Translations under genes and position numbers: made by a program
Part shown: piece after piece, positions 2,044 through 17,842 of the stretch
How positions within the stretch are numbered: the first letter of the stretch is position 1
Layout of the letters: each line of letters starts with the position of its first letter
IMG/VR virus record: IMGVR_UViG_2548876941_000012
DNA from: a virus
Lineage: Duplodnaviria > Heunggongvirae > Uroviricota > Caudoviricetes
DNA length: 32,850 nucleotides
Direction: 5' to 3' (one strand)
The notes under the pieces: model-generated
What the model saw: only the letters and a program-made list of their open reading frames with translations
What the model was told of the DNA's origin: nothing
Databases searched by the model: none

Positions 2044-2061
2044 TTTAAAAGGTATTTAATT

Positions 2062-2955
2062 ATGAGTTTAATTACGCAATTAAATGACGTAATGGCCCGT
2101 CGCGGCTATACGCAGACCCACGTCGCCCGTGCTATTGGTCGTAGCAGCGCCGTTATCAACCAGTATTTACAGGGTAAATATCAGGGCGATATGGCTGATA
2201 TTGAAGAACGCATTTCTGCCTTTGTGACCCGTGAGCGGGAAAAGGAAAACAGCCGCCGTATTAAAGCGAAATTTGTTGCCACCGGTATGGCTGCCAAAGG
2301 ACTGGAAGTGCTGGCCTATGCTCACCTGGAATGTGAAATCTGCGTACTGTATGGCGCGGCAGGTCTTGGCAAAACAATGATTCTGCGTGAATACGCCGCC
2401 AGAAACCGGGATGCGGTCCTGATTGAAGCTGACCCGGGCTATACAGCCAGAACACTGCTTGAGGAGCTGTGCCGCCAGCTGGGGGTAAAAGTTCGCGGCA
2501 ATATCCACGAACTGATTGATGCATGTGTGCGAGAACTGCGTGATTCCGGTCGCCTGCTGATGGTGGACGAGGCTGAACTGCTCCCCTATCGCGCACTGGA
2601 GGTTCTGCGCCGTCTGCATGACAAAGCGGGTATCGGGATTGTCCTGGCGGGTATGCCACGCCTTCTGATTAACCTCAAGGGACGTCGCGGTGAGTTCGCC
2701 CAGTTATACAGCCGTGTGGCGCTGGCGCTTAACCTGGGCGATACGCTGTCGCAGGAAGATTTTAACCAGATAGCCACCGGGCTGATGCCGGAAGCAGTAG
2801 AACCGGAAATCAGCGAGGCGCTTTACGAACGCTCGCTGGGTAATGCCCGCCGCCTCTTCAAACTGGCGCGCGGTGTGTACCGGATTTGTGATATCAGCGA
2901 TGCACCGGTCAGTGTGCAGGCCATTGATAAATTCGCAGAAATGTTAATTCACTGA
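2062..2955 (+). CDS. MuB-like AAA+ ATPase (DNA transposition target protein B)
   Basis: 297 aa. N-terminal HTH-like segment (TQTHVARAIGRSSAVINQYLQGKY), Walker A GAAGLGKT, Walker B LLMVDEAE. Position immediately after the transposase. Confidence 0.85.
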   Translation: MSLITQLNDVMARRGYTQTHVARAIGRSSAVINQYLQGKYQGDMADIEERISAFVTREREKENSRRIKAKFVATGMAAKGLEVLAYAHLECEICVLYGAAGLGKTMILREYAARNRDAVLIEADPGYTARTLLEELCRQLGVKVRGNIHELIDACVRELRDSGRLLMVDEAELLPYRALEVLRRLHDKAGIGIVLAGMPRLLINLKGRRGEFAQLYSRVALALNLGDTLSQEDFNQIATGLMPEAVEPEISEALYERSLGNARRLFKLARGVYRICDISDAPVSVQAIDKFAEMLIH

Positions 2956-3194
2956 TGGAGAACAAGACGATGGACAAGCAGACCATTAACGCCGTCCGTT
3001 CCCGTGCCCGTGTGGCCATCCACACCACTGGTGGTCGTGTAACGGGACAACATCACCGTTTACCTGTGGTTTATGCCTGCCCGCCCGTGGGTGGTCCTGT
3101 ATGGCCGGTAACGGAAATCATCCAGACATTCAGCGGCCTGCGCCGCGTGGTGAAAACATCCTGTATCGACGGCTGCACCGTCGTATGGCAATGA
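2955..3194 (+). CDS. hypothetical early protein
   Basis: 79-aa ORF whose ATG overlaps the B stop codon (TGATG). No recognisable motif; possible alternative start at the internal Met (MDKQ). Confidence 0.4.
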   Translation: MENKTMDKQTINAVRSRARVAIHTTGGRVTGQHHRLPVVYACPPVGGPVWPVTEIIQTFSGLRRVVKTSCIDGCTVVWQ

Positions 3195-3206
3195 GAGGAA
3201 ATCAGA

Positions 3207-3422
3207 ATGGCGGTCAAGTTAGAAGTAATTATCTACACCGATGAAAATGGCACGCTTCGTGTCAGGAGTATGGGGGCTATTGATAAAAAAGGATTTACGG
3301 ATGAAGAGGTCGGTGTAAGACAACGGTTATGGGAGGTAATGAATCAAACTCTTAATAAAGAATTTAACGGCGTTGATTTATTTTCTGTTGGCGTGGAACC
3401 CTGCGCGCATAACACACATTAA
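3207..3422 (+). CDS. hypothetical early protein
   Basis: 71-aa ORF with good SD (AGAGGAAA) upstream of ATG; somewhat AT-richer than neighbours. Confidence 0.5.
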   Translation: MAVKLEVIIYTDENGTLRVRSMGAIDKKGFTDEEVGVRQRLWEVMNQTLNKEFNGVDLFSVGVEPCAHNTH

Positions 3423-3451
3423 TCTGTAAATATCACTGAGGTAATTTAATT

Positions 3452-4096
3452 ATGACGACTGAAAATAAAGTTAAGCAATACACGAAAACTCAAGCGCCTG
3501 AAGGTTACTGGGTGGATGCCCGTGGCGTAATGACACCTGAAAGCCTTATCAAAGATATTGACCGCGACCGCGAGCAGCTGGTCGGTGAGCTTGTGGAGAT
3601 GGTGATTGCTGCCTCCGCCTCACTGCGGGAACTGAAACTGCGTGCGTTTGGTGATATTCAGGCGTTTATTGACCTGTCGGCGGAGAAATACGGCGCTGTG
3701 AAAGGCGGTAAAAAAGGGAATATCACGCTTTACAGCTTTGACGGGCGTTACAAGATTCAGCGCGCCATGCAGGACCGTATCGCGTTTGATGAACGCATTC
3801 AGACCGCGAAGTCGCTGATTGATGATTGCCTGGCTGACTGGACGGAAGATGCACGCCCTGAAATTAAGGCCATCATCAGTGAGGCATTCAGCACGGACAA
3901 GGAAGGCAACATCAACACCGGTCGCGTTCTGGCCCTGCGTCGCCTCGAGATTGAGGACGAACGCTGGAATAACGCCATGTCGCTGATTGGTGAAGCCGTC
4001 CAGGTAATTGGCAGCAAAAGCTATATCCGCGTGTATGAGCGCGTCGGTGATTCTGCTGAATACCGCGCAATCCCGCTTGATATTGCAGGGGTTTAA
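3452..4096 (+). CDS. conserved Mu-like phage early protein (DUF3164-like, assignment from memory)
   Basis: 214-aa ORF, SD GAGG upstream. Family call is recollection only, not a search result. Confidence 0.6.
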   Translation: MTTENKVKQYTKTQAPEGYWVDARGVMTPESLIKDIDRDREQLVGELVEMVIAASASLRELKLRAFGDIQAFIDLSAEKYGAVKGGKKGNITLYSFDGRYKIQRAMQDRIAFDERIQTAKSLIDDCLADWTEDARPEIKAIISEAFSTDKEGNINTGRVLALRRLEIEDERWNNAMSLIGEAVQVIGSKSYIRVYERVGDSAEYRAIPLDIAGV

Positions 4097-4097
4097 C

Positions 4098-4331
4098 ATG
4101 CATCAGGATATCAAAGAGTACAGGGCTGGGAACCGTTGCGCAGCGTATTCGCTGGGCGCGTCCAGAGCAGAACAACGCGGCGATTATGCCGAAGCTGAAA
4201 AACTGTGGCGTAAGGCAGCACAAAGCCCGTGTAGTACCCTGCGCCGCATCTGGGCGGAACACCGGGCAGAGTTCTGTGCCAATGCTCACCTGAAAGGATG
4301 GAAGCCGCCTCATGAACGCGAAACGCTTTAA
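4098..4331 (+). CDS. small protein, possibly ANR-family-like
   Basis: ATG at 4098 two nt after the upstream stop; 77 aa with AAYSLGASRAEQRGDYAEAEKLWRKAA and RAEFCANAHLKGW segments. The track ORF 4008-4331 uses an upstream alternative start that overlaps the previous gene. Confidence 0.45.
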   Translation: MHQDIKEYRAGNRCAAYSLGASRAEQRGDYAEAEKLWRKAAQSPCSTLRRIWAEHRAEFCANAHLKGWKPPHERETL

Positions 4332-4503
4332 TCAGCTATATCCGCCAGGGACTCGCTTCATGCACATTGCACATCGGGCAGTGCGTGGTGGTCGGGTGGT
4401 AAAAACTGTTGCACCTGCCAGAGATTTTAAATGTGGTTGTGTGGTTGAAATTAATGTCGAGCCTTATTTCGTTAAAGTCGAAACACTGAAAGCACCGCAT
4501 TAA
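4312..4503 (+). CDS. hypothetical protein
   Basis: 63-aa ORF overlapping the upstream gene by 20 nt; last gene before an AT-rich gap containing a hairpin. Confidence 0.45.
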   Translation: MNAKRFNQLYPPGTRFMHIAHRAVRGGRVVKTVAPARDFKCGCVVEINVEPYFVKVETLKAPH

Positions 4504-4532
4504 TTTAATTTGTTTTTAATTGTTATTTAAAA

Positions 4533-4566
4533 CAGGCGTAAACCCGCAGGGGCTGGCTTACGCCTG
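4533..4566 (-). terminator. hairpin, probable terminator for the minus-strand gene 4644-4862
   Basis: 9-bp inverted repeat CAGGCGTAA / TTACGCCTG around a 16-nt loop. On the minus strand it is followed by TGTTTTAAAT; on the plus strand there is no U-tract. Confidence 0.4.
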
Positions 4567-4643
4567 AATCTGAGGAAGTTTATTTATGAATATTGCTAAG
4601 CAAAAAAAATTCGCCCGCGAAATTAATCTGACAATCGTTTGTT

Positions 4644-4862
4644 TTAATCGTCTTGCGACCAGTTCTCAATCGACAGCAGATGTTCATCCAGCGCCGCAGC
4701 CAGAACGAACTCCCCACGTTCCTGAAGGCCGTGCTGGAAGTTGCGTAATTCAGAATCCAGGGCGCTGAGGTTCAGACAGCCATTTTCTGAAAGCTGTTTA
4801 ACCAGAAAGCTCCACGCAGCTTTGTTAGCAGTAATTGCTGCCGCAATTTCATCATCAATCAT
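4644..4862 (-). CDS. reverse-oriented small acidic protein (72 aa), function unknown
   Basis: Only convincing minus-strand ORF in the window. SD AGGAG 5 nt upstream of ATG on the minus strand; enteric-like codon usage; net charge about -9 with acidic C-terminus ENWSQDD; downstream hairpin with U-tract. Confidence 0.5.
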   Translation of the reverse strand: MIDDEIAAAITANKAAWSFLVKQLSENGCLNLSALDSELRNFQHGLQERGEFVLAAALDEHLLSIENWSQDD

Positions 4863-4950
4863 TTTTTAACTCCTGATTGGGTATGTTGGGGCAGCGATTA
4901 TGACAAGTGTTTTGTGGTTATAAGTTGATCAAAAACAATGAGTTACAACC

Positions 4951-5661
4951 ATGAAAGATAAATACATTGCCAAAATCAAAAAACTGTTACGCCTTGCCAA
5001 AGGAACATCAAGCCCGGAAGAAGCCGCTAACGCTATTGCAAAAGCCCAGGCTTATATGCGCCAGCATGGTATCAGCGAAAACGACGCGGAATTGTTCGAC
5101 ATTCAGGAAGCTGCCAGCGCGGGTGCGCCGAGTGACGCCAGTACGCCGCCGCGTTATATGCACATCCTGTGTGACCTAGTCTGTAAAGCCTTCGGTGTCG
5201 AGTGTTACATCTCCGGCGAATACCGGGCTTCTGGTTCACTTAAACGTTACGTGCGTTTTTATGGTCCTGACAGCCGCCCGGAAATCGCGGCTTACGCGTT
5301 TGATGTGCTTTCCCGTCAGATGATGGCAGAGCGCAAGAAATATCAGGATAAACACTGCAAACGTTGTGGTCCGTCCACGCGGGTAGCCCGTGGCGACCAG
5401 TTCTGCGAAGGCTGGGTCTTTGGTGCCCGTGATGTCATTGCGGTGTATGACGTCTCCCCGGAAGAAAAAAGCCGCCTTGAGCTTTACAGAAAGAACCTGC
5501 ACAGCACTAAGGGACTGCGCGACGGGGATATGCGCACAGCTAAAGCGTGTCGGGGTGCAGAGTTTGCCGCTACTGCCGGTTTTATCGCCGGGAAGAACGC
5601 CAGGCTGCATCAGGGGGTTAATGGTCAGAGCAACAGACCGCTGGCACTGGGGAGGGTGTAA
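4951..5661 (+). CDS. DUF2786-like phage protein
   Basis: 236 aa. N-terminus KIKKLLRLAKGTSSPEEAANAIAKAQAYMRQHGI matches my memory of the DUF2786 N-terminal helix pair; Cys-containing C-terminal domain. Confidence 0.65.
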   Translation: MKDKYIAKIKKLLRLAKGTSSPEEAANAIAKAQAYMRQHGISENDAELFDIQEAASAGAPSDASTPPRYMHILCDLVCKAFGVECYISGEYRASGSLKRYVRFYGPDSRPEIAAYAFDVLSRQMMAERKKYQDKHCKRCGPSTRVARGDQFCEGWVFGARDVIAVYDVSPEEKSRLELYRKNLHSTKGLRDGDMRTAKACRGAEFAATAGFIAGKNARLHQGVNGQSNRPLALGRV

Positions 5662-5663
5662 CG

Positions 5664-5891
5664 ATGGCTTTTAAACTTCTTAGTGTTACCGAAGCAATAT
5701 ACCAGCCGCCCGGAGAACGCCACGAATACAGGATGAATGACGGTAGCGCGGTGGTTGAGTTCCCCGGATATCCGGGGGCTTCCCGGTGGCGGTTCTATGA
5801 CAGTGTGGGACGTCGGATTATTAAAAGAACCGTGCACAACAATATGAAGGCTGCCGTAGAACGTCATAAGAGAAGGTTTAACTGCAAATGA
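5664..5891 (+). CDS. hypothetical protein
   Basis: 75-aa ORF; SD GGAGGG upstream; starts 3 nt after the preceding stop. Confidence 0.5.
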   Translation: MAFKLLSVTEAIYQPPGERHEYRMNDGSAVVEFPGYPGASRWRFYDSVGRRIIKRTVHNNMKAAVERHKRRFNCK

Positions 5892-6118
5892 AAATTGAAT
5901 TTTATGACCATGGGGTCACCGCAACTATCACTATTTCTTGTTGGTTCTGGGAGTTCCACCGTTACTTCAGAGTTGTAGATGCTGCGCTGTTTGTTGCACC
6001 GGGAGCGTTACATCACAGTGGAATCGGTATTGTTATGAACACTGTCATCAGCGGTAAAACGGTCCCGATGTTGCGGGCGTTTAAAGTGGCAAAACAGGAG
6101 GCTGGCAATGGTCATTGA
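5888..6118 (+). CDS. hypothetical protein
   Basis: 76-aa ORF with ATGA stop/start overlap with the upstream gene. Confidence 0.45.
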   Translation: MKIEFYDHGVTATITISCWFWEFHRYFRVVDAALFVAPGALHHSGIGIVMNTVISGKTVPMLRAFKVAKQEAGNGH

Positions 6119-6422
6119 TAAAACGATAACGATAGATGTAGCCATGAATACAGGTCTGGCGCTTATCGGTTATGGCTATATCACTTTTATGTCATTCAGG
6201 TGGTTGATTTCTTCGCTCTTTAAGCAGCGTGAAAAACATCGTTGTAAAGACAAGCGCGCGAAGGCGCTAAATGCGTTTAATGACGCTTTTGATATTGACC
6301 ATATGCAACAGGGCGACCCCGCACGCGTAATTACCCGGGGAGATATTGTAATTCTTGTGTACCGGAATGAAAAAAATGAACAGGAGACAACCAGTGAGTC
6401 AGCAAACCAGAATAAGCGATAA
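6108..6422 (+). CDS. hypothetical membrane-associated protein
   Basis: 104 aa; SD CAGGAGG upstream; hydrophobic segment GLALIGYGYITFMSFRWLISSLF followed by a basic/acidic tail. Confidence 0.5.
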   Translation: MVIDKTITIDVAMNTGLALIGYGYITFMSFRWLISSLFKQREKHRCKDKRAKALNAFNDAFDIDHMQQGDPARVITRGDIVILVYRNEKNEQETTSESANQNKR

Positions 6423-6558
6423 GAGTCTGACCAGACTGATTGCCGATGCGGACAAGGTGCTGGAGCGGAACTCCCCCGTTGCCGATGAGGAATGGTGGCA
6501 GGATTTCCGGGCTGCAATGCTGGAACTTCAGGAACGTCGTCGGGAGGTGTTGAAGTGA
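6394..6558 (+). CDS. hypothetical small protein
   Basis: Track ORF 6355-6558 (TTG start). Best-supported start is GTG at 6394 with SD GGAG 7 nt upstream, giving 54 aa; start is uncertain. Confidence 0.4.
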   Translation: MSQQTRISDKSLTRLIADADKVLERNSPVADEEWWQDFRAAMLELQERRREVLK

Positions 6559-6824
6559 GTGAATTAAAGTGTCGAATTAATGGCAATCAGATAGAACCGT
6601 GTGCGGTACTGGCAAAAGCACTCGAATATGGAAATCCAGCCTTTAAGAGTAAAGGCATATTTATCCCGGAACGCGTGAATATAAACACCGGCGAGCCAGG
6701 CTTAGACATTGCTCAAATTCACTCCGGCCAATATGTCGGTCGTGGTGTTGCCATGTGTTTTTGCCCGTTCTGTGGTGAAAGTCTGAAAACATGGAAAAAG
6801 GAGGCAACCAGTGAGCGAGATTAA
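6555..6824 (+). CDS. hypothetical protein with Cys motif
   Basis: Track ORF 6492-6824. GTG at 6555 has SD GGAGG upstream and overlaps the upstream stop; contains CFCPFCG and an earlier KC...PC pair, suggestive of a small zinc-ribbon. Confidence 0.5.
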   Translation: MSELKCRINGNQIEPCAVLAKALEYGNPAFKSKGIFIPERVNINTGEPGLDIAQIHSGQYVGRGVAMCFCPFCGESLKTWKKEATSERD

Positions 6825-7308
6825 CTATCAGGCACTGCGTGAGGTGGCAGAGGCCGCGAAGGGGGATACGACGTGGCAGAACCTACAGGCTTTTCATGCT
6901 GCGGCTACGCCGGAGGTTGTGCAGGCGTTGCTGGATGAAAACGAAAGACTGTGTCGCGATCTGATAGCTCGTAATGGTGAGATTGAAGGGCTTCGGGAGT
7001 GGGCAGAAGAACTGGAGGCACGGGAGGTGGCTTTGCCAGTAGCGTCATGCATTGTTGAAGATGGATGCATGTGTGTTGATGGGTTCAGTGAGTATGTAGG
7101 TCACTCGCTACCTGATGGAATGCATGAGCTTTATGCTGCCCCGCCAGCGTCGGTAGTGCCGGAAGGACTAGTTAAAGCAGTGCGTTTCTATGAACAGGTA
7201 AAGTGTGAGAATCCGCCAGTCGAAACCGGAGCATGGAAAGACGCGGTTGACTGGGTACTCAACGAGGCTTGCCAGGCTGTAAATATTGACGCCAAAGGAG
7301 GTGCGTAA
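6811..7308 (+). CDS. acidic protein with Ead/Ea22-like N-terminal region (tentative)
   Basis: 165 aa, GTG start with SD GGAGG. N-terminus NYQALREVAEAAKGDTTWQ and ATPEVVQALLDENERL resembles, from memory, the N-terminal region of lambdoid Ea22/Ead-family proteins. Confidence 0.5.
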   Translation: MSEINYQALREVAEAAKGDTTWQNLQAFHAAATPEVVQALLDENERLCRDLIARNGEIEGLREWAEELEAREVALPVASCIVEDGCMCVDGFSEYVGHSLPDGMHELYAAPPASVVPEGLVKAVRFYEQVKCENPPVETGAWKDAVDWVLNEACQAVNIDAKGGA

Positions 7309-7478
7309 TGCGTGTAGCGTTTATCGGTTTATTACCATACCCGACTCGTTTTTGGGCTTCTGCGCTAATTGCAAAGCCACATGCCCTGATGGCTGACAGC
7401 ATCATCCCGGCACCAAAGCGCCATACCGGTATTGCTGCTGCACGACGCGAAGCAAAGAAACGCAGGAGAGCAAAATGA
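7308..7478 (+). CDS. small hydrophobic/basic peptide (56 aa), below the ORF-track size cut-off
   Basis: ATG at 7308 overlaps the upstream stop (TAATG), strong SD AGGAGG 7 nt upstream; stop overlaps the next start (ATGATG). Hydrophobic N-half (AFIGLLPYPTRFWASALIA) and Arg/Lys-rich C-terminus. Confidence 0.4.
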   Translation: MRVAFIGLLPYPTRFWASALIAKPHALMADSIIPAPKRHTGIAAARREAKKRRRAK

Positions 7479-7663
7479 TGAAAAACCGTAAGGCAAGACT
7501 GCTGATAGCAAAGCCAGGGCAACTTATCCGTATCTCAAATCGACTTGTTGTTCGCTATAGATATCTTGGTTTTAGGGAGTGGTCCTCTATTCGTTTTTAC
7601 GGTGTCTGGAGAAACAGAAGCGCGACACAAAACCGCTGGAAGAATCACACTAACGCAAAGTAA
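7475..7663 (+). CDS. small basic protein, function unknown
   Basis: 62-aa ORF, SD AGGAGA upstream; Arg/Lys-rich. Confidence 0.45.
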   Translation: MMKNRKARLLIAKPGQLIRISNRLVVRYRYLGFREWSSIRFYGVWRNRSATQNRWKNHTNAK

Positions 7664-7680
7664 TTAAATAATAACCAATA

Positions 7681-7708
7681 GCAGACCAAAAAGTATTTTT
7701 TGGTCTGC
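7681..7708. promoter_or_regulatory. perfect 12-bp palindrome (GCAGACCAAAAA gtat TTTTTGGTCTGC) with adjacent TTTTGGTC repeat
   Basis: Read directly; lies in a 67-nt intergenic gap inside the early region. Stem contains its own A/T tract, so it could be a bidirectional terminator or a protein-binding site. Confidence 0.4.
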
Positions 7709-7730
7709 CAAAAGTGATGTTTTGGTCATT

Positions 7731-8009
7731 ATGAAGATTGAACAAATCGGAATGGCAGCTTTCAGGCAACAGGCTGAAAGCGGTGGCGTGGATGAGTTCG
7801 TCGTGCAGCGGTTCGGTGGTGTGTATCATCTATTCGCTGTGAATCGCCGCGCCGGGGTGTCCTATTTTCTACAGGAACGTCGTGGCGATTACAAGACATG
7901 GCTGTCTCTTGACCGTGCCGCTGCGTTCTTGTCAGGGATTGGCGTTTCACGTTTTACCGTGCGTTTTGAGGATAACAAACATGCTGAAAAAGATGATCGG
8001 GGCCATTAA
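7731..8009 (+). CDS. hypothetical protein
   Basis: Track ORF 7722-8009 (TTG); first ATG at 7731. 92 aa; overlaps the next gene by 29 nt. Confidence 0.5.
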   Translation: MKIEQIGMAAFRQQAESGGVDEFVVQRFGGVYHLFAVNRRAGVSYFLQERRGDYKTWLSLDRAAAFLSGIGVSRFTVRFEDNKHAEKDDRGH

Positions 8010-8379
8010 AGCCGGTCAGGCGTATCTGGGGTGGGATGATGCCCTTTATCGCCAGACGCTGGCCCGCCTGACCGGTAAAACCAGCACCACACGCTGCAAT
8101 CTCGATGAACTGCGCATCATCCGGGAATACATGCACGAACAGGGATTCCCGCGCAAGGCACCCGCTGGTAAAGGTCGCCGCCCTCGTGTTGCAATGAGCA
8201 GAAAATCAGTATTATCCAAAATTGAAGCGTTGCTGGCTGATGCCGGTCGTTCCTGGGCGTATGCAGAAGGACTGGCATCTCACATGTATAAGCAACATGT
8301 GATCGAATGGCTGACGGATGAACAGCTTTTTGGAGTGATGGTGGCGCTGGTTAAAGATTCAAGAAGGAGAAATCAATGA
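7981..8379 (+). CDS. GemA-like protein (DUF1018-like, tentative)
   Basis: ATG at 7981 within the larger track ORF 7882-8379; 132 aa; position just upstream of the Mor/C-family gene as gemA is in Mu; sequence features (AYLGWDDALYRQTLARLTGKTS) recalled as GemA-like. Confidence 0.55.
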   Translation: MLKKMIGAIKAGQAYLGWDDALYRQTLARLTGKTSTTRCNLDELRIIREYMHEQGFPRKAPAGKGRRPRVAMSRKSVLSKIEALLADAGRSWAYAEGLASHMYKQHVIEWLTDEQLFGVMVALVKDSRRRNQ

Positions 8380-8852
8380 TGAAAAAATGGTTGTTTTGTT
8401 TAGTAGGGGTTATTTTCTCTTGTTCTGTGCTAGCACAGACAGAGGAACAGGCGCAAAAGGAACTGAAACGTTATCAGGATATGAAGCCATTGGCTGAACA
8501 GATGCTTCGGGAAAGTGGAAAACTTTATTACGCTATGCCAGAAGCTGCATCGCAGTATCAGCAGGGAAATATTGAAGAGTGGAAGAATATCAAAAAAGGA
8601 CTAAAACAACTGGATGAACAGGCCAGTAAACTGGGGGACGACCCGCTTGATCCTGTGTATGGTTCCTGCATAAAAATGAAAAACCAGCTACAGGATTACT
8701 GGTCTAACGTTATCAGGGATGACAGGCAGTTTCTGGAGCGTTCAAGAAATCAGTTTAAAGAATATCGTATGGATTGTTTTGATTCGTTTGTTTTTGGTAA
8801 AGAGCAAATAGAATCAAGAAAAGGCCTGGTTATTCTAGACCTGACTAAATAA
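8376..8852 (+). CDS. secreted or periplasmic protein of unknown function (moron candidate)
   Basis: 158 aa with N-terminal signal peptide (MMKKWLFCLVGVIFSCSVLA, likely cleavage after VLA); visibly AT-richer than flanking phage genes; followed by a strong intrinsic terminator. Confidence 0.7.
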   Translation: MMKKWLFCLVGVIFSCSVLAQTEEQAQKELKRYQDMKPLAEQMLRESGKLYYAMPEAASQYQQGNIEEWKNIKKGLKQLDEQASKLGDDPLDPVYGSCIKMKNQLQDYWSNVIRDDRQFLERSRNQFKEYRMDCFDSFVFGKEQIESRKGLVILDLTK

Positions 8853-8862
8853 GACTTAGTTT

Positions 8863-8890
8863 AGCCCCTGCCATGCAGGGGCTTTTTTTG
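8863..8890 (+). terminator. rho-independent terminator
   Basis: AGCCCCTGC cat GCAGGGGCT stem-loop followed by TTTTTTT. Confidence 0.8.
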
Positions 8891-8894
8891 TGGT

Positions 8895-8923
8895 CTGTAC
8901 AGGCGATCATGTATGGCTATAAT
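8895..8923 (+). promoter_or_regulatory. promoter-like element with consensus -10 and weak -35
   Basis: TATAAT at 8918-8923; the hexamer 17 nt upstream is CTGTAC (poor match to TTGACA); about 30 nt upstream of the Mor/C-family gene. Confidence 0.45.
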
Positions 8924-8952
8924 AACAGTAAGTTACTACCGGAGACGCCATC

Positions 8953-9420
8953 ATGCAGACCTTCAGTGAAACAGATCTTCGCGATGCGCAGGCACTGCTG
9001 CCCGATTCCGTGCAGCAACTGATTAGCGTGATTGGCTTCCCCGCCCTGACCCGGTTGATTCGTTCTTTTGGTGGCGTGACGTTAAGCGGTAAAACCGGCG
9101 TACACGCCGAACGCACCGGCGGTGTCCATGCCCTGTTACATGACGTGCTCACCGAAGACGAAATCAACAAACTGATCCGCTTTCTTGGCGGTGCTCCGTT
9201 TTACATTCCCCGTTGCGATCATGCGTTACGTGCCCTGCGTAACACCCGTTTTATGGCTGATTTACAGCAGCATGTAAAAGACGGATGCTCACACCGGCAG
9301 GCGCTGGCACTGCTCTGTCCCCGTTACGGCATTTCAGACCGGTACGCATGGCAGCTGATACACCGACGACAAAAACAGACTTCGCTGAAAAGCCCCACCC
9401 AGGTGGGGCTTTTTGATTAA
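8953..9420 (+). CDS. Mor/C-family transcriptional activator
   Basis: 155 aa; LGGAPFYIPR motif and C-terminal HTH-like LCPRYGISDRYAWQLIHRR resemble Mu Mor/C proteins; position between early region and lysis genes. Confidence 0.7.
   Translation: MQTFSETDLRDAQALLPDSVQQLISVIGFPALTRLIRSFGGVTLSGKTGVHAERTGGVHALLHDVLTEDEINKLIRFLGGAPFYIPRCDHALRALRNTRFMADLQQHVKDGCSHRQALALLCPRYGISDRYAWQLIHRRQKQTSLKSPTQVGLFD
9391..9415 (+). terminator. rho-independent terminator overlapping the 3' end of the Mor/C-family gene
   Basis: AGCCCCAC ccag GTGGGGCT stem-loop followed by TTTTT, ending 3 nt before the stop codon. Confidence 0.7.
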
Positions 9421-9446
9421 TGGGCCTCAGAAAAAAGGAGACACTT

Positions 9447-9725
9447 ATGACCAACTATATGGCACTTGGCGAGTATACGGCCTACTCAGAGCAGGCCCGG
9501 GATGCTGCCGGACGTCGCTTTGCTTATATGAAAAATTTGGCCAGTCAGTTAAACCGAATGGCCGAACAACCGGATATGGTTGTTCAGGAAGAAGCGTTGC
9601 AGTGTGCCATTGCTGACATCATCGCCAGCGAAAACGAGATGCGCGCAGCGATGGAAAAGGCGAACGCCTCTGCTCCGCTTTGTAATAAACCTCTTATTAC
9701 GCCGGATTCTCTTTCCCGCTTCTGA
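9447..9725 (+). CDS. hypothetical protein
   Basis: Track ORF 9420-9725; ATG at 9447 has SD AGGAGA 6 nt upstream, giving 92 aa. Confidence 0.5.
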   Translation: MTNYMALGEYTAYSEQARDAAGRRFAYMKNLASQLNRMAEQPDMVVQEEALQCAIADIIASENEMRAAMEKANASAPLCNKPLITPDSLSRF

Positions 9726-9730
9726 TTTAT

Positions 9731-9750
9731 CACCCCGCCGCCGCGGGGTG
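9731..9750 (+). promoter_or_regulatory. GC-rich hairpin (CACCCCGC cgcc GCGGGGTG)
   Basis: Perfect 8-bp stem, 4-nt loop, no U-tract; its 3' arm overlaps the start of the dyad motif at 9748. Confidence 0.45.
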
Positions 9751-9775
9751 CTGAACTCCCCCAGCAGTACCCACC
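9748..9775 (+). promoter_or_regulatory. candidate late-promoter activator site, copy 1 (GTGCTGAACTCCCCCAGCAGTACCCACC)
   Basis: One of three copies of a GTGCTGAAC-NCCC motif found upstream of late operons (others at 17903 and 29821); about 130 nt upstream of the lysis cassette start. Confidence 0.5.
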
Positions 9776-9907
9776 ACACCAGACCGTTTACCCTGTCCAC
9801 TCAGACCACAAGGCACCTTAAGGGATAGCGCCCTGCAAAAGGCTTTTGTGCCTTTGACAGGGTGTTATTTACGGGCCGTCAGTGGCTCAGATTTACAGGA
9901 GAAACTC

Positions 9908-10300
9908 ATGTCTGAACCCTTATCAGGCGGCGGAGCTGTGGCAGTCACCATCGGTGGTGCCAGTGTGTTTGGCCTTCTCACCAATACCGATTTCGGGGTC
10001 GTGGTGGGCGCGTTTGCCGGGGCGCTTTTTGTTGTCACTCAGCAGAAAGAAATCCCGGTATGGCGAATGGCTATTCACCTGCTCGTCGCGTTTGTGGTTG
10101 GCGTTCTGGGGGCTGGCGTGGCTGCGTCACTGATGCAGTGGCTGACCCACTACAACGACAAACCGCTTGATGCATTGTGTGCGGTCGGTGTCTCGGCGTT
10201 ATCCATCAAGATACTGACCTTTCTTTATCAACAGGAAATTTCATCGCTGTTCGGCCTGTTTTCCAGACTGCGCGGCGGAGGGGGTGGAAATGGAAAGTAG
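9908..10300 (+). CDS. holin-like membrane protein
   Basis: Track ORF 9848-10300; ATG at 9908 with SD AGGAG; 130 aa with three hydrophobic helices; first gene of the lysis cassette. Confidence 0.6.
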   Translation: MSEPLSGGGAVAVTIGGASVFGLLTNTDFGVVVGAFAGALFVVTQQKEIPVWRMAIHLLVAFVVGVLGAGVAASLMQWLTHYNDKPLDALCAVGVSALSIKILTFLYQQEISSLFGLFSRLRGGGGGNGK

Positions 10301-10586
10301 CCTTGCCGGTATCGTGAACGTCTGGCTGTGTCTCGCCATTGTGCTGGGGTTGTTTGTGTATCGCCGCCACGGTGCGGCGCATAAACCGATGATTACCTGG
10401 CTGGCGTACTGGCTGATGCTCGGCTACATCATCATCCCGTTCCGCTGGCTGTCCGGTACATACACGCACTCCAGCTGGCTGGTTGTGGCGCTGAATCTGG
10501 TTTTCTGTGCGCTTATCGTGTGGGCGCACGGGAATTTGTCAAAAATCCTTTCGTTACTGAGGCATCCACATGAAATCAAAAGATGA
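10290..10586 (+). CDS. membrane protein (holin/antiholin-like)
   Basis: Track ORF 10284-10586 (GTG); ATG at 10290 with SD GGAGGGGG upstream; 98 aa with multiple hydrophobic helices; overlaps flanking genes. Confidence 0.5.
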   Translation: MESSLAGIVNVWLCLAIVLGLFVYRRHGAAHKPMITWLAYWLMLGYIIIPFRWLSGTYTHSSWLVVALNLVFCALIVWAHGNLSKILSLLRHPHEIKR

Positions 10587-11115
10587 CATTTTTGATGAAG
10601 TCCTGGGCAAAGAAGGCGGTTACGTCAATCACCCGGACGATAAGGGCGGTCCGACCAAATGGGGCATTACGGAAAAAGTCGCCCGCGCCCACGGATATCG
10701 TGGCGATATGCGCGATTTAACCCGCGAACAGGCGCTGGACATCCTTGAAGCCGATTACTGGTATGGCCCGCGATTTGACCAGATCGCCGCATTATCCCCT
10801 GATATTGCCGCAGAGCTGTGTGATACCGGTGTGAATATGGGGCCAACCGTGGCGTCCAGAATGCTTCAGCGCTGGCTGAATGTGTTCAATCTGCGCGGCA
10901 GGCTGTACCCGGATATGGACGCAGACGGACGCATCGGGCCTCGTACCATCAGTGCATTGCGCGCCTTCCTGAATAATCGCGGTCAGGACGGTGAACGGGT
11001 GATGCTGACGGCCCTGAACTGTACGCAGGGGGACCGCTATCTGGAACTGGCGGAGAAACGCGAGGCTAACGAATCGTTTGTTTATGGCTGGCTGAAGGAG
11101 CGCGTGGCGATATGA
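10570..11115 (+). CDS. endolysin (GH108-type lysozyme with peptidoglycan-binding domain)
   Basis: 181 aa; N-terminal KEGGYVNHPDDKGGPTKWGIT matches the GH108 signature as I recall it; no N-terminal signal or SAR segment. Confidence 0.8.
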   Translation: MKSKDDIFDEVLGKEGGYVNHPDDKGGPTKWGITEKVARAHGYRGDMRDLTREQALDILEADYWYGPRFDQIAALSPDIAAELCDTGVNMGPTVASRMLQRWLNVFNLRGRLYPDMDADGRIGPRTISALRAFLNNRGQDGERVMLTALNCTQGDRYLELAEKREANESFVYGWLKERVAI

Positions 11116-11294
11116 CGCGTCAGCACTGGACCCACAGAACGCCACGTAAAGCCGCGCGCTGTGTTCTGGCCCTGTTTCTGGTGATGTTGCTTCCGGTGGG
11201 ATGCACAGATATTAACAGAACGGGACAGCTGTTAGACGCGGCGGCGCAGGTCTGCCGGATTATTGACGGCATCCGGCAGTGTTCACAGAACTGA
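11112..11294 (+). CDS. small putative lipoprotein (possible outer-membrane spanin-like)
   Basis: 60 aa; hydrophobic N-terminal segment ending LLPVGC (lipobox-like) with further Cys residues; position after the endolysin. Confidence 0.45.
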   Translation: MTRQHWTHRTPRKAARCVLALFLVMLLPVGCTDINRTGQLLDAAAQVCRIIDGIRQCSQN

Positions 11295-11521
11295 TTTTTC
11301 GAAGGTCTGACACAGTGAGCATTATCAGATTTACAGAATACAGAGGTTCAGGAGGTGCTGGCGCTGTCATGGTGCTCGCTGAACGCATCACCCATTTTTA
11401 CCGTCAGTACGGTACACATGATGGCACGGTCATTGAACTGGATACCGGGAAAAACGTGTTTGTTCTTGAAAATCCCGACGAAGTTCAGCGCAGGATTGAA
11501 CAGGCTCAGAAGGACACTTAA
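11279..11521 (+). CDS. hypothetical protein
   Basis: 80-aa track ORF (GTG start); alternative GTG at 11315; no TM segment. Confidence 0.4.
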   Translation: MFTELIFRRSDTVSIIRFTEYRGSGGAGAVMVLAERITHFYRQYGTHDGTVIELDTGKNVFVLENPDEVQRRIEQAQKDT

Positions 11522-12021
11522 TGGCGTGGTCACAGGATATCAGGGACAAAGTCCGTAACGGGTACATCTTTGACCAGCTTCCGCTGGATATCGTCGCCAT
11601 GAAGTTCGCCGTGCCGCACGACACCGCGCGGCGCTGGAAAACGCAGGCGATGAAGAACGGCGACGACTGGGACAAGCTGCGGGCCGCTCACGCGCTCGCC
11701 GGTGACGGACTGGAAAGTGTCGCCCGCACCGTGCTTATCAGTCTGGTGGTGAAGTGTCAGACGACGCTTGAACGGCTGAACCAGAACCCGGACATCCCGC
11801 CGCAGGAGTCCGTCGAACTGCTGGCGAGTCTGTCCGACAGTCTCAGTAAGGCGGTGGCCAGCAGCAAAAAAATCCTGCCGGAAACCGACCGGCTCGCCAC
11901 GGCACTGGAAGTGGTGCAGCGGCTCGGCGCGTTCATCAAGGAGCGTCACCCGGCACAGTATGCCCCGTTTCTTGAGGTGCTCGAAGGCTTCGCTAAAGAG
12001 CTTGAGGATAATTTCAGTTAA
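11521..12021 (+). CDS. terminase small subunit-like protein (Mu gp27-like, tentative)
   Basis: 166 aa with N-terminal HTH-like region (IFDQLPLDIVAMKFAVPHDTARRWK); position upstream of the large terminase. Confidence 0.6.
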   Translation: MAWSQDIRDKVRNGYIFDQLPLDIVAMKFAVPHDTARRWKTQAMKNGDDWDKLRAAHALAGDGLESVARTVLISLVVKCQTTLERLNQNPDIPPQESVELLASLSDSLSKAVASSKKILPETDRLATALEVVQRLGAFIKERHPAQYAPFLEVLEGFAKELEDNFS

Positions 12022-12027
12022 CCACAG

Positions 12028-12047
12028 CGGCCCGGTTTTCCGGGCCG
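12028..12047 (+). promoter_or_regulatory. GC-rich hairpin (CGGCCCGG tttt CCGGGCCG)
   Basis: Perfect 8-bp stem immediately after the TerS-like stop, upstream of the methyltransferase gene; downstream U-tract is weak. Confidence 0.4.
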
Positions 12048-12067
12048 TCTGATATTCGGGATTTGTA

Positions 12068-12808
12068 ATGCAAAAACAGATTATTGGTAACGCAACGTTG
12101 TATTGCGGTGATGTTCTTGATGTGCTGCCGGCGTTATCCGAACGTTTTGATGCCGTCATTACCGACCCGCCTTACAGCAGTGGTGGCACACATAAATCAG
12201 ACCGCAGCATGGCCCCTTCGGACAAGTATGTCGGTCACACCCAGTATGCCGAGTTCAGCGGGGATAACCGCGACCAGCGCAGTTGGGCATACTGGAGCAC
12301 CCTGTGGATGTCCGGGGCTGCCCGCCTTGTGCGCCCCGGTGGTTATGTCATGGTGTTCAGTGACTGGCGACAGCTTCCCACCATGACCGACGTTTTTCAG
12401 GCCGGTGGTGTGCTGTGGCGTGGTCTTGTTGTCTGGGATAAAACGCAGGCTTCCCGTGCGCCACACACCGGCTATTTCCGGCATCAGGCCGAGTATGTGG
12501 TCTGGGGCAGCAACGGAAAACTCGACAAATGTCCGCACGGTGGCCCGTTCCCGGGTGTGATTACGCAGCGTGTTGTCCCGTCCGAAAAACTGCACATGAC
12601 CGCAAAGCCGGTTCAGCTGATGGCCGAGCTGGTTAAACCGCTGGCACCGGATGCGCACGTTCTCGATCCGTTTATGGGAAGCGGCACCACCGCCATCCCG
12701 GTACTTGCCCGTGGCGGACGGTTTACCGGCATTGAAATGACTAACCAGTATTTTGATATCGCCTGCGCACGTATCGAAAAAGCGCAGGCAGAAGCAGCGC
12801 AGGTGTGA
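12068..12808 (+). CDS. DNA methyltransferase, beta-class (N6-adenine or N4-cytosine)
   Basis: 246 aa; catalytic motif IV DPPY near the N-terminus (AVITDPPYSSGG), SAM-binding motif I near the C-terminus (VLDPFMGSGTT); this motif order is the beta-class arrangement. No adjacent restriction gene. Confidence 0.85.
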   Translation: MQKQIIGNATLYCGDVLDVLPALSERFDAVITDPPYSSGGTHKSDRSMAPSDKYVGHTQYAEFSGDNRDQRSWAYWSTLWMSGAARLVRPGGYVMVFSDWRQLPTMTDVFQAGGVLWRGLVVWDKTQASRAPHTGYFRHQAEYVVWGSNGKLDKCPHGGPFPGVITQRVVPSEKLHMTAKPVQLMAELVKPLAPDAHVLDPFMGSGTTAIPVLARGGRFTGIEMTNQYFDIACARIEKAQAEAAQV

Positions 12809-12809
12809 C

Positions 12810-14450
12810 GTGGCAAAACGTAAACTTTCCATTAAAGAGTTTCAGAGAAGCCTGCAGGAGTACATCGCCAACCTCCGCCAGACCATCGAGGCTGAATGTC
12901 TGGGGTTCGATGTAAACCCGCAGGCCACACAGGCCCGCCGGGCGGCAGTCTGTGACCCGGTGACGGGCTACGATTATTTTGTCGAAAACTATTTCCCGCA
13001 CTACGTCCGCAACCCGGCAAAAAGCGAGCTGCATAAATACCTGTTCAGCCGTCTGCCACAGGTTGTGGCAAGCCCGGACCCGGAGAACGACGCCATCGCC
13101 GCGCCCCGTGGTGAAGCAAAATCCACGCTGGTGACTCAGTTGTTTACCCTGTGGACCATTATCCGGGCCATTAAGCATTATCCGGTCATCATTATGGACA
13201 GTATCGACCAGGCTTATCCGATGCTGGAAGCCATCAAGGCTGAACTGGAATTTAACCCCCGTTTAAAAAACGATTTCCCGGAAGTGTGCGGGCAGGGTCG
13301 CGTCTGGCGTATGGGGACCATCGTCACGGCCAACAATATCAAGGTGACCGTTGCCGGTAGTGGTAAAAAGCTGCGTGGTCTGCGCCACGGTCCGTACCGT
13401 CCTGACCTGGTTATCCTCGACGACATCGAGAACGACGAGATGGTGCGTAACCCGGAGCAGCGCGACAAGCTGCATGACTGGCTCACCAAAACCGTGATGC
13501 CGCTGGGCGAGGCTGGTGGTAAAACAGATATTATTTATATCGGAACCATCCTGCATTACGACTCCGTACTGTCGCGCACACTCAATAATCCGATGTGGAA
13601 AACGGCCCGTTTTAAGGCCGTCATTCAGTGGCCTGCCAATATGAAGCTGTGGGACGAGTGGGAAGAACTCATCCGCAACAAACAGCCGGAAGCAGCAGAG
13701 GCACTTTACCGACAGAACGAAGCCGACATGCTCGCCGGGTCGGTGGTGTCATGGGCGGCGCGTCCCCTGCTGGCACTGATGAAAATCCGTGTCCGTGACG
13801 GTCATGACACCTTTGATTCTGAATACCAGAACGACCCGGTCAGCGGTGAAGATGCGCTGTTTGCGGGCTGCATTAAGTTCTGGGTTAACCGTCTTGATGA
13901 ATGGGTGTTTTATGGTGCTGTTGACCCCAGTCTCGGGAAGAAAAACAAAAACCGCGACCCGTCGGCCATTCTCGTGGGGGGCTTTAACCGCTTTACCGGC
14001 ATTCTGGATGTGGTTGAAGCCGATATCCGCCGACGTCTACCAAACAAACTTATCGAAGACGTGATTAAGTATCAGCGGGAATACCACTGTCTGTGCTGGT
14101 CGTTTGAGTCCGTCCAGTTTCAGGAGTTTCTGCGCACCGTGCTGGTTGAGCGTTCGGCGGCGCTGGGCGTTCCGGTTCCGGCGCTGCCGGTCATCCCGCT
14201 GGAGGATAAAGCGCTGCGTATCGAATCCCTTCAGCCGCATATGGCCAACGGCCTGATCCGCATCAGTCCGGCACATCAGACGCTGATTGACCAGCTGCGC
14301 CACTACCCCAAAGCCGACCACGATGATGGCCCGGACTGTCTGCACATGCTGTGGACGCTGGCGGTATCGCGTAGCGCAAAATTTCAGATACACACCCCAC
14401 GCAGCACCGGGCGTGACCGTGGCGGGCGTTTTGGTTCAGGAGGATGGTAA
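12810..14450 (+). CDS. terminase large subunit
   Basis: Track ORF 12753-14450 starts at a TTG inside the methyltransferase gene; GTG at 12810 is 2 nt after the methyltransferase stop. About 546 aa; position before the portal gene. Start is uncertain. Confidence 0.8.
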   Translation: MAKRKLSIKEFQRSLQEYIANLRQTIEAECLGFDVNPQATQARRAAVCDPVTGYDYFVENYFPHYVRNPAKSELHKYLFSRLPQVVASPDPENDAIAAPRGEAKSTLVTQLFTLWTIIRAIKHYPVIIMDSIDQAYPMLEAIKAELEFNPRLKNDFPEVCGQGRVWRMGTIVTANNIKVTVAGSGKKLRGLRHGPYRPDLVILDDIENDEMVRNPEQRDKLHDWLTKTVMPLGEAGGKTDIIYIGTILHYDSVLSRTLNNPMWKTARFKAVIQWPANMKLWDEWEELIRNKQPEAAEALYRQNEADMLAGSVVSWAARPLLALMKIRVRDGHDTFDSEYQNDPVSGEDALFAGCIKFWVNRLDEWVFYGAVDPSLGKKNKNRDPSAILVGGFNRFTGILDVVEADIRRRLPNKLIEDVIKYQREYHCLCWSFESVQFQEFLRTVLVERSAALGVPVPALPVIPLEDKALRIESLQPHMANGLIRISPAHQTLIDQLRHYPKADHDDGPDCLHMLWTLAVSRSAKFQIHTPRSTGRDRGGRFGSGGW

Positions 14451-14453
14451 TTA

Positions 14454-16049
14454 ATGGCACAGCTTGTTGATATTTACGGACGCCCGCTGAAATGTGAGGC
14501 ACTCAAAACCACGCAGTCGGTCAGAGTGGCGGAACGGCTGCGCATTTATCCAGACCACCCGTCGCGTGGTCTGAACATCAGAAAACTGCCGCGCATTCTG
14601 GAAGCTGCCGAACGCGGCTATCTTCCGGCGCAGGCGATGCTGTTTGCGGACATGGAAGAACGTGATGGCCATCTGTTCGCCGAGATGGAAAAGCGCAAAA
14701 AAGCCTTGCTGACACTGGACTGGTCGGTGGAGCCGCCCCGCAATGCCTCGAAGGCAGAAAAGGAGCTGACTGCCGCCGTGGATGAGTGGCTGCACGGCAT
14801 CCCGGACATGGAGGACATCATCCTCAACGGGATGACCAGTGTCGGTTATGGCTTCAGTTGTCAGGAAATCAGCTGGGCGTTCGTGGATAAAACGTGGTTA
14901 CCGGATGCGGTGACGCTGCGCCCGCATAACTGGTTTATTACCCTGCCGGAACACAATGACGAACTCCGGCTGGATGACGGCAACCGTGGGGAAGACGGTA
15001 AGGACGGTTCCGCATTGTGGCCATTCGGCTGGCTGGTTCACCGTTACAACGCCCGGTCGGGGTTCCTGGGTTCATCCGGCCTGTTCCGCGTACTGGTCTG
15101 GCCGTATCTGTTTAAAAACTTTGCGCTGCGTGATATGGCGGAATTTCTGGAGATTTACGGCCTTCCGGCGCGCATTGCCTACTATGCACAGGGCACCAGT
15201 GACGAAGACCGGGATAACATTCTTGAGGCGCTGGTCAATCTGGGGCATGAAGCGGTGGCAGCCCTGCCGCAGGGTAACGAGATTGAGTTCAAGGAAGCCG
15301 CATCCGGCGGACCGGAGGCGTTCATGTCGATGGTGGAATGGGCGGAGCGTACCACCTCAAAAGTGATTCTGGGCAGTACGCTGACCAGCCAGGCCGACGG
15401 TAAAACCTCCACCAACGCACTGGGTAATGTCCATAACGAGGTCCGGCACGACATTCTGACCGCTGATGCACGCCAGCTGTCCGGCATGTTCAGCAGTCTG
15501 ATACAGATGATGGCCAGTCTCAACGGCTGGCAGGATATCCCGTCACGCCGTCTTCCGCGCCTGGTGTTTGATGTGCAGCAGGAAGCTGACATTAAGGGCG
15601 TGGCGGAAGCCGTCAGCGTGTTGCTCAACAATGTGGGGATGAAGGATATCCCGGCGTCGTGGGTGCGCAAAAAAACCGGCATTCCCACCCCGAAAGACGG
15701 CGAAGAGGTACTGGTGCCGGTGGCACAGCCTCTCCCTGTGCAGGTTGGCCTCAGCCAGCTGCGTGAGCGGATGAATGTTGCCGCACTCAGTCAGCAGGGC
15801 AACGGGGAGGACGACCCGGCACAGAACGCCATCGACCGGGCAGAGCTTCCGGCAGAGGCCATCGCGCAGGGGATGAACGAACTGGTGGCTCCACTGGTGC
15901 AGGCCATACAGGAAGGCCGGGATGCAGACGAGGCTATGAACGTACTGGCGGAAGCGTGGCCGGAGCTGCCGGATGAAACGCTGCGGCAGTTGCTGACACA
16001 GGCATTCTTTGTGGCGGATATCTGGGGGCGACTGAATGCCGACAGCTGA
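14454..16049 (+). CDS. portal protein (Mu gp29-like)
   Basis: 531 aa; position between the large terminase and the F-like head morphogenesis gene. Confidence 0.8.
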   Translation: MAQLVDIYGRPLKCEALKTTQSVRVAERLRIYPDHPSRGLNIRKLPRILEAAERGYLPAQAMLFADMEERDGHLFAEMEKRKKALLTLDWSVEPPRNASKAEKELTAAVDEWLHGIPDMEDIILNGMTSVGYGFSCQEISWAFVDKTWLPDAVTLRPHNWFITLPEHNDELRLDDGNRGEDGKDGSALWPFGWLVHRYNARSGFLGSSGLFRVLVWPYLFKNFALRDMAEFLEIYGLPARIAYYAQGTSDEDRDNILEALVNLGHEAVAALPQGNEIEFKEAASGGPEAFMSMVEWAERTTSKVILGSTLTSQADGKTSTNALGNVHNEVRHDILTADARQLSGMFSSLIQMMASLNGWQDIPSRRLPRLVFDVQQEADIKGVAEAVSVLLNNVGMKDIPASWVRKKTGIPTPKDGEEVLVPVAQPLPVQVGLSQLRERMNVAALSQQGNGEDDPAQNAIDRAELPAEAIAQGMNELVAPLVQAIQEGRDADEAMNVLAEAWPELPDETLRQLLTQAFFVADIWGRLNADS

Positions 16050-17750: not shown

Positions 17751-17842
17751 ATGGCGACAAACGCGCTGTAATCGGCTGTGACAGCATAAACGCTTCATGG
17801 ATGAGGCATAACAGCACCGCATCCCATAAATGCCGTCAGAAT

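Follow-up and report, generated by a model that had tools for sequence, protein, structure and literature searches.

A single Mor/C-family activator gene set apart from the early operon by a terminator and a sigma-70-type promoter in a Mu-like prophage of Escherichia coli

As for the timing of late genes in transposable phages, the textbook model is the Mor-to-C cascade of phage Mu. Phage P2 relies on a single late activator, Ogr, that has its own sigma-70-type promoter and is not part of the early operon, and its late transcription also depends on phage DNA replication; Ogr is a member of an unrelated zinc-finger family with a different promoter architecture. The middle operon of Mu (AF083977) consists, in order, of the t9.2 terminator, the promoter Pm, genes E18-E20, C and a terminator, and it is followed by the lysis promoter Plys; a terminator hairpin (9179-9200) lies inside the annotated Pm region (9163-9233). 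Proteins of the Mor/C family bind DNA as dimers or tetramers and recruit RNA polymerase via the alpha-CTD and sigma region 4 (cf. 10.1101/2025.05.02.651988), the sites of both C and Mor are centred at -43.5 (PMC2582627), and Mu C contains a beta-clamp-binding motif, QPDLF, that is needed for late transcription (Ho and Harshey, PMC12867686). A layout with only one mor gene has already been described for Pseudomonas Mu-like phages (PMC4378225, PMC9936078). The D3112-like phages and beetreviruses of Pseudomonas (Fc02, PaMx73), and enterobacterial single-mor relatives as well, have one Mor/C gene of PHROG 836 beside gemA; in the single-mor relatives mor overlaps gemA and ends the repressor-controlled early operon (PMC9936078), and those from enterobacteria and Aeromonas have the same late promoter with a CTGAAC dyad downstream.

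The stretch of DNA analysed here (32,850 nucleotides, hereafter the window) is 99.9% identical to a Mu-like prophage located within eutC of E. coli O127:H6 E2348/69, and it runs from the transposase A gene to the tail-fibre region; the gene set for transposition, lysis, head and tail is intact and includes a CI-like repressor and a Ner of the HTH_35 type. The features located below are all on the + strand. The final conserved gene of the early operon is gemA (7981-8379; PF06252 GemA, E 2.9e-18; gp16 family protein in RefSeq), followed by an ORF of 158 aa (8376-8852), a terminator (T1), a promoter-like site (P_mor), the 155-aa ORF of the activator, a second terminator (T2), orf92 (9447-9725; PHROG 7152, unknown function), which has a strong RBS, and the lysis genes, namely two holins and a GH108 endolysin. 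The 158-aa ORF occupies the slot that mor holds in Mu; it has no Pfam or PHROG match, and its N-terminus, MMKKWLFCLVGVIFSCSVLA, is a signal peptide, hence its reading as a variable cargo gene for an exported protein. Scanning the window for Rfam families and tRNAs gave no matches, nor did a megablast search of 8300-9800 against sequenced phages; among isolated phages, relatives are distant and visible at the protein level only, with at most 41% identity.

Regarding this protein, encoded at 8953-9420, it matches the Mor/C profiles, as the first-pass annotation of the sequence had anticipated: it scores 28.5 bits against PF08765 Mor (Pfam cut-off 24.9), it belongs to PHROG 836, "late transcriptional activator" (E 3.5e-42), and RefSeq names it a Mor family protein. 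Pairwise BLASTP gave 8e-5 with Mor and 5e-5 with C, and the protein is about equidistant from Mu Mor (27% identity) and Mu C (41%), these values being those of short local segments; when solved structures were searched with the family profile, the Mu C chain was matched (PDB 9l0x, E 8.4e-4) and Mor was not. The stretch LGGAPFYIPR aligns with LGGGQVYIPR of Mor and LGGRQFYIPC of C, and its conserved LGGxxxYIP pattern corresponds to the glycine-rich beta-strand linker that joins the dimerisation domain to the DNA-binding domain; G79, Y84, I85 and P86 are invariant in 17 aligned sequences. Relative to Mor and C, the protein has two insertions. At the C-terminus it has QVGLF followed by D, and QxGLF aligns with the QPDLF of C; within the subfamily, Q150, L153 and F154 do not vary, and QxxLF is kept across the clade. 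QVGLF thus resembles a clamp-binding motif, as judged by its sequence; the N-terminal version of such a motif, Qx[DE][LM]F, is absent from the 155-aa protein, which starts with MQTFSETDL.

This gene is the only member of the family that was recognised. For a second one, all 1030 stop-to-stop ORFs (25 aa or longer) from the six frames of the window and of 11.8 kb upstream were searched by phmmer, with the 155-aa protein and the two Mu proteins, Mor and C, as queries, and with a family HMM; for the 1.4 kb of prophage past the window end the evidence is the annotation, which lists tail-fibre genes only. Only the ORF at 8932-9417 was found, the next best match among the 1030 having 5.5 bits (E 0.7). 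Pfam scans of 20 early ORFs revealed no further Mor domain, and when the family profile was compared by hhalign with each neighbouring ORF, the probabilities were 0.7% and 0.07%, the former for the 158-aa cargo ORF, which is therefore not Mor-like. The claim of a single recognisable Mor/C-like gene at 8953-9420 is borne out by these results, including the HMM search of the early ORFs for a second member that had been proposed along with it. The rarity that this claim implied does not hold, because one gene is normal in this clade and is known for the Pseudomonas Mu-like phages.

T1 (8863-8889) is an intrinsic terminator by its sequence and is predicted to end the early operon. Its hairpin (8863-8883) has a stem of nine pairs, seven of them G-C, and a loop of 3 nt, and it is followed by a U7 run (T-run 8883-8889); the folding energy is -17.6 kcal/mol (z -3.5), none of 200 shuffles was equally stable, and the site ranked top among the terminator-like sites in 20 kb. 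Its position is also the left edge of a mosaic cassette, and here the sequence exists in several versions: AGCCCCTGCCATGCAGGGGCT, the unrelated AACCTCCGCAAACGCGGAGGTT and, in Salmonella, the compensated AGCCCCGCCAACTGGCGGGGCT, every one of them stable and with a T-run after it (the loci L014 and L015, Salmonella L016, and L030 have such unrelated or compensated hairpins). The hairpin has been kept through sequence replacement, thus a terminator appears to be selected for at this site whatever its sequence; in other words, the predicted function of T1 is conserved, and its sequence is not. A role of the hairpin as an activator site, by analogy with the t9.2 hairpin in Mu Pm, was considered and rejected, because L014/L015 have an unrelated hairpin in front of an unchanged promoter, and a hairpin that is interchangeable in sequence is not a sequence-specific site.

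T2 (9387-9414; -20.6 kcal/mol, z -3.3) is an intrinsic terminator or attenuator placed within the last 11 codons of the activator gene. It has a G-C core of 7 bp (9392-9398/9403-9409) and a U5 run (9410-9414), just before the mor stop codon (9418-9420), and the QVGLF codons (9400-9414) coincide exactly with the end of its loop, its 3' arm and its U-run. T2 is identical in the E. coli relatives and has a single loop change in Salmonella; a scan with a consensus terminator missed it because the extension of the stem by A4/U4 pairs consumes the T-run. No promoter-like site was found in 9415-9447 by the sigma-70 scan, and orf92 has a strong RBS and no promoter of its own, so that some read-through of T2 must occur. 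Both terminators agree with the initial description of the locus, which placed a strong one at 8863-8890 and another in the last codons of the activator (9391-9415).

P_mor (8896-8923) has the form TGTACA-16-TATAAT, with the -35 at 8896-8901, a 16-bp spacer that includes a GATC (8905-8908), and the -10 at 8918-8923, after TGGC; its predicted start is at about A8930, and the RBS GGAG is at 8941-8944. The gene lies behind a strong terminator and therefore needs a promoter of its own. P_mor matches the consensus at 10 of 12 positions, four of six in the -35, which lacks TTG, and it was the best of only four sigma-70-like matches in window positions 1-20000, a region for which shuffles gave 13.7 ± 3.5; the G and C just 5' of TATAAT presumably also fit a sigma-S-preferred context. 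The first-pass annotation had spoken of a weak -35 and a perfect -10: TATAAT is indeed perfect, and "poor" is a fair word for a -35 without TTG, but these counts do not show the promoter itself to be weak.

Part of the P_mor sequence is conserved beyond E. coli. CTGTACA, CGATCA and TGGCTATAAT recur in the window, in L019 and in Salmonella with the 16-bp spacing kept, while the intervening and following bases differ; the activators of L019 and Salmonella have 82% and 66% identity with that of the window. The comparison is based on these three independent lineages, as the E. coli relatives are uninformative on this point because their whole mor region is about 96% identical. The conserved blocks can be taken as modest but real evidence of a footprint, and CTGTACA is unique in the prophage. 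No similarity was detected between P_mor and the c/ner early control region, with no shared k-mers above chance, and the prophage has no second copy of the early operator palindrome, GGATAACAC-N4-GTGTTATCC; an operator common to P_mor and the c/ner region was rejected on these grounds. A promoter with a consensus -10 that is not regulated and precedes the lysis activator should harm the lysogen; no silencing element was found.

As for the targets of the activator, three candidate late promoters were located in the window. The first (Plys-like, 9751-9794), upstream of the holin/endolysin genes, has the dyad CTGAACTCCCCCAG at 9751-9764 and the -10 TACCCT at 9789-9794; the second (PI-like, 17909-17952), upstream of the protease/head genes (ATG 17960), has CTGAACACCCTCCA at 17909-17922 and CATCAT at 17947-17952; the third (PP-like, 29825-29868), between the baseplate V gene and a gp46-like gene (ATG 29875), has CTGAACACCCTCAC at 29825-29838 and CAGACT at 29863-29868. 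The intergenic regions before the holin and protease genes share a 26-bp pattern, GGTGCTGAAC-N-CCC-N-C-NN-CAGTACCC (2 occurrences against 0.00 expected), and CTGAACNCC has 7 occurrences where 0.88 would be expected. What is conserved in these promoters is an imperfect dyad, CTGAAC-N-CC-N-TCA (TGA-N6-TCA, often CTGA-N6-TCAG), and from its centre to the -10 downstream the distance is exactly 31.5 bp; the -10 elements are weak and there is no -35.

Sites with this arrangement, 15 in all, were collected from E. coli, Salmonella, Xenorhabdus, Photorhabdus, Trabulsiella, Intestinirhabdus, Buttiauxella, Aeromonas and metagenomes. Counted from the C of CTGAA, all 15 have a (T/C/A)AnnnT hexamer at precisely 38-43 bp (TACCCT, CATCAT, CAGACT, TATTCT, TACACT, CACAAT, CAGAAT, CAGTAT, CAATAT, AATACT), and the 24 bases between the dyad core and the hexamer are not conserved among them. 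If the hexamer is taken as positions -12 to -7, the dyad centre falls at -43.5. With a weight matrix the three window sites scored 30.8, 30.4 and 33.8 bits, respectively, all above 30 (30-34), against 12 for the next best match and a shuffle maximum of 18.1; the matrix was built with these three sites, so that their scores are partly circular and it is the gap to the next match that is informative. The same scan found no late-promoter sites at the prophage ends. By analogy with Mor and C, we infer that the 155-aa protein binds and activates the three candidate promoters.

None of the three is in front of mor itself. P_mor has no CTGAAC dyad and no match to the matrix, and what is found at its -43.5 position is GGCTTTTTTTGTGG, the T-run and tail of the terminator. 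P_mor is therefore not of the activator-dependent type of this family, and the earlier view of it as typical of activator-dependent promoters is contradicted by its consensus -10, its four of six -35 positions and its missing dyad, as the real class of such promoters in this phage looks different. Autoregulation of mor is likewise unlikely and was rejected for the E. coli prophage, since no CTGAAC dyad lies upstream, unlike in Xenorhabdus.

The region 8863-9444 is a mosaic cassette common to E. coli and Salmonella prophages, in which the cargo upstream differs or is absent. It was found in 58 complete E. coli genomes as well as in Salmonella and IMG/VR contigs, and in 35 of the 58 genomes the similarity starts at 8863 or 8884 and stops at 9444-9447. 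The cargo slot is empty in L013, where gemA is directly followed by T1; it holds a 112-aa protein of PHROG 5882 in L014, a protein of 158/159 aa in the window and L015, and unrelated signal-peptide proteins of 174-175 aa in L019 and Salmonella. In about 10 relatives, instead, a single mor overlaps or is fused with the end of gemA as the last gene of the early operon, with the CTGAAC late promoter after it (loci L004, L006, L007, L009, L010, L021-L024, L027 and L028, from Trabulsiella, Intestinirhabdus, Buttiauxella, Serratia, Aeromonas and metagenomic contigs). A rough neighbour-joining tree places the insulated mor genes of E. coli and Salmonella in one clade, sister to the other groups. Most relatives having mor overlapping gemA within the early operon, the insulated arrangement appears from these comparisons to be the derived one.

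Prophages of Xenorhabdus and Photorhabdus (L003, L005) differ in having two mor genes. In front of the closest orthologue of the activator (55% identity), a cargo gene for a signal-peptide protein and a terminator-like hairpin likewise set it apart from the early genes, and it also has a CTGAAC late promoter 3' of the gene; its own promoter contains a CTGAAC dyad (-10 AATACT at +38), and the terminator-like hairpin begins approximately where the transcript of this promoter would start. A second and distant Mor-family gene (36% identity) is retained in the early operon. By its sequence features, this layout is predicted to be a true Mu-like two-step relay.

When compared with the middle operon of Mu, the unit in the window is similarly placed just after gemA, with the early terminator immediately 5' of the promoter; it similarly encodes a late activator with a C-terminal QxxLF tail and has a terminator just before the lysis promoter (here T1, T2 and the site at 9751), and the late promoters of both phages have a dyad at -43.5 and a -10 with no -35. 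The differences are that no mor gene lies upstream in the early operon, that P_mor has a consensus -10, a -35 with four of six positions and no activator dyad, unlike Pm, that the unit consists of one gene and orf92 instead of four genes, and that the hairpin is about 14 bp farther from the -10 than that of Mu and interchangeable in sequence. Unlike in the other single-mor phages, mor here has its own promoter, and a cargo slot and a terminator lie between it and gemA. What is distinctive is then not the number of genes but the uncoupling of mor from the early operon by a terminator and a sigma-70-type promoter.

On these grounds, the block 8863-9444 is probably the counterpart of the Mu middle operon, with one activator under an ordinary promoter, and the cascade would lead directly from early to late. 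Early transcription (A, B ... gemA, cargo gene) would stop at T1, whose hairpin and T-run are seen in the sequence, and the sole activator would be transcribed from P_mor, a promoter recognised by sequence and conservation, from a start near A8930. T2 would let only part of the transcripts pass into orf92 and would shield the lysis genes from P_mor. The activator, by analogy with Mu C and Mor, would bind the dyads at about -43.5 of the three late promoters and recruit RNA polymerase, probably also through its QVGLF clamp-binding-like tail, and the lysis, head and baseplate/tail operons would be switched on by it; early would thus pass to late via one activator, with neither a Mor-to-C relay nor autoregulation. 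In the E. coli/Salmonella lineage, the terminator and a new promoter would now part mor from gemA. The one-step or differently wired cascade proposed at first survives in that a single activator does not make the Mor-to-C relay of Mu; the route via an activator-dependent promoter does not. As a working guess, P_mor may have a low output, and its product may pass a threshold set by cooperativity only once the template has been amplified by replicative transposition.

The alternatives differ mainly in what turns mor on. P_mor could still depend on an activator, namely an early protein outside the Mor/C family that acts at or near CTGTACA and the -35 after induction, in a two-step cascade. The -35 without TTG, the need of the lysogen for a promoter that is off, the retention of CTGTACA in E. 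coli and Salmonella together with its uniqueness in the prophage, and the presence of several early ORFs with no known function all speak for such a protein; we nevertheless regard it as rather unlikely, given that a perfect -10 with four of six -35 positions at 16 bp is unlike the activator-dependent promoters of this phage, that the sequence 5' of the -35 has been replaced wholesale, which would confine any site to the core promoter, and that Pfam scans of the early ORFs gave no candidate activator. A more speculative proposal, which we hold to be unlikely, lets replication license the switch: P_mor would be weak and unregulated behind T1, and replication itself would signal the passage from early to late, replacing the relay from the early operon to mor. 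The late genes would fire only once replicative transposition had acted in three ways: it would multiply the template, it would leave the GATC of the spacer (8905-8908) hemimethylated or unmethylated, and it would supply loaded beta-clamps for the QVGLF tail. The insulation of mor, the clamp-binding-like tail and the conserved spacer GATC fit with it, the latter in a phage genome where GATC is depleted 3.8-fold (33 sites against 125 expected); the local cluster of GATC around mor, on the other hand, is not significant, as it was reached in 649 of 5000 random placements, and it was discarded as a feature.

It is also conceivable that the P_mor match is incidental and that the activator, its gene behaving as the last early gene still, owes most of its expression to transcripts that pass a leaky T1. 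Most relatives do have mor in the early operon, the expression of orf92 already needs passage through T2, a similar hairpin, and the safety of the lysogen would be explained with no extra regulator. Against this, the T1 stem of nine pairs, seven of them G-C, with its U7 run is the top-ranked site in 20 kb, the maintenance of a terminator at this spot despite sequence replacement indicates that termination is selected, and the elements of P_mor and their 16-bp spacing are kept in Salmonella where the neighbouring bases are not, which together make read-through quite improbable as the main source of the activator. Finally, the eut operon that contains the prophage is disrupted, and window and reference differ by an indel of 1 bp in a homopolymer near 3290, which might suggest a decaying remnant, in which the layout of terminators and promoter would have no regulatory meaning; with the transposition, lysis, head and tail genes all intact, the late-promoter motifs intact too, and the same cassette in 58 complete E. 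coli genomes, Salmonella and IMG/VR contigs, decay is very hard to credit.

In conclusion, the reading in which one activator, under an ordinary promoter, leads directly from early to late describes an insulated single-activator unit, which is new as a modest rewiring of the Mu cascade; the single activator itself was already known. Pathogenic E. coli and Salmonella commonly carry prophages of this family, which have the same late machinery as Mu with one activator, whose gene is separated from the early operon. The consensus obtained for the late promoters is directly usable to annotate prophages of this group. If replication state or an unknown factor turns out to control P_mor, this family would provide a second way of timing late genes in transposable phages, and the cassette, with about 580 bp and three target promoters, would be a compact natural system for tests of clamp-coupled activation.

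Regarding the cargo of the early operon, the slot that separates gemA from the early terminator (8376-8852) is a hot-spot in the window as well as in the relatives L013-L015, the Salmonella locus L016, L019 and L003 (of the Xenorhabdus/Photorhabdus group); the slot proteins are mutually unrelated, and several have a signal peptide. In the window, the slot holds a 158 aa protein with a signal peptide; in Salmonella and L019, it encodes a protein of 174-175 aa (PHROG 19473, signal peptide), in Xenorhabdus one of 175 aa, also with a signal peptide, and in L014 one of 112 aa (PHROG 5882), while in L013 it is empty.

Further upstream, the gap before the gemA region contains a promoter-like site, ATCACA-17-AATAAT (7644-7672), with a very stable A/T-rich hairpin of 12-14 bp 3' of it (7681-7708; z of -6.0 on the + strand and -7.5 on the - strand); in Mu, a terminator and a semi-early promoter are annotated at a position comparable to that of this pair (7644-7708). 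The early region is unidirectional except for the ORF at 4644-4862 (- strand, 72 aa), a RefSeq-annotated gene that could be expressed in the lysogen. Finally, an A-run at ~3285-3295 differs by one base from the E2348/69 RefSeq record (A6 in the window, A5 in the record), and this difference falls within an unannotated ORF (3207-3422).

GATC is 3.8-fold rarer than expected in the whole window (33 sites vs 125 expected); despite this depletion, one GATC (8905-8908) lies within the 16-bp spacer of the predicted mor promoter, and it is kept in L019 and Salmonella. The same phage encodes a DNA methyltransferase (12068-12808).

As for the 3' end of mor, the 3' arm and U-run of the terminator T2 are the codons of the clamp-binding-like tail QVGLF (9400-9414; GTG GGG CTT TTT), so that, as read from the sequence, this single stretch is predicted to be doubly used, at the protein level and at the RNA level. 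In relatives that are more distant, QxxLF is kept but the hairpin is absent.

Of the three late promoters predicted, two would start transcription on or beside the annotated ATG (17947-17962 and 29863-29877): the -10 element CATCAT of the second ends at 17952, with the ATG at 17960, and CAGACT of the third ends at 29868, with the ATG at 29875. Because a Shine-Dalgarno sequence is absent upstream of both ATGs, the late mRNAs may be leaderless, or alternatively the gene starts may be mis-annotated.

The metagenomic contig L026, which carries P0017, has a Mor-family gene (49% identity) outside any Mu-like phage, adjoining a DUF927 primase-like gene; its product has no QxxLF tail, and upstream of the gene (region 1920-2003) lies the dyad CTGACCTCGTTCA, followed 37 bp later by TACGCT. 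L026 could be a satellite-like element using the same late-promoter code. In the Lonepinella prophage L008 (6856-6988), a more distant relative (36% identity), the gemA-mor gap likewise holds a hairpin, ACCTAGGGTGTTAACCCTAGGT, followed by a T-run, ATTTTTTT; from this arrangement, the insulation of mor from the early operon may have more than one origin.
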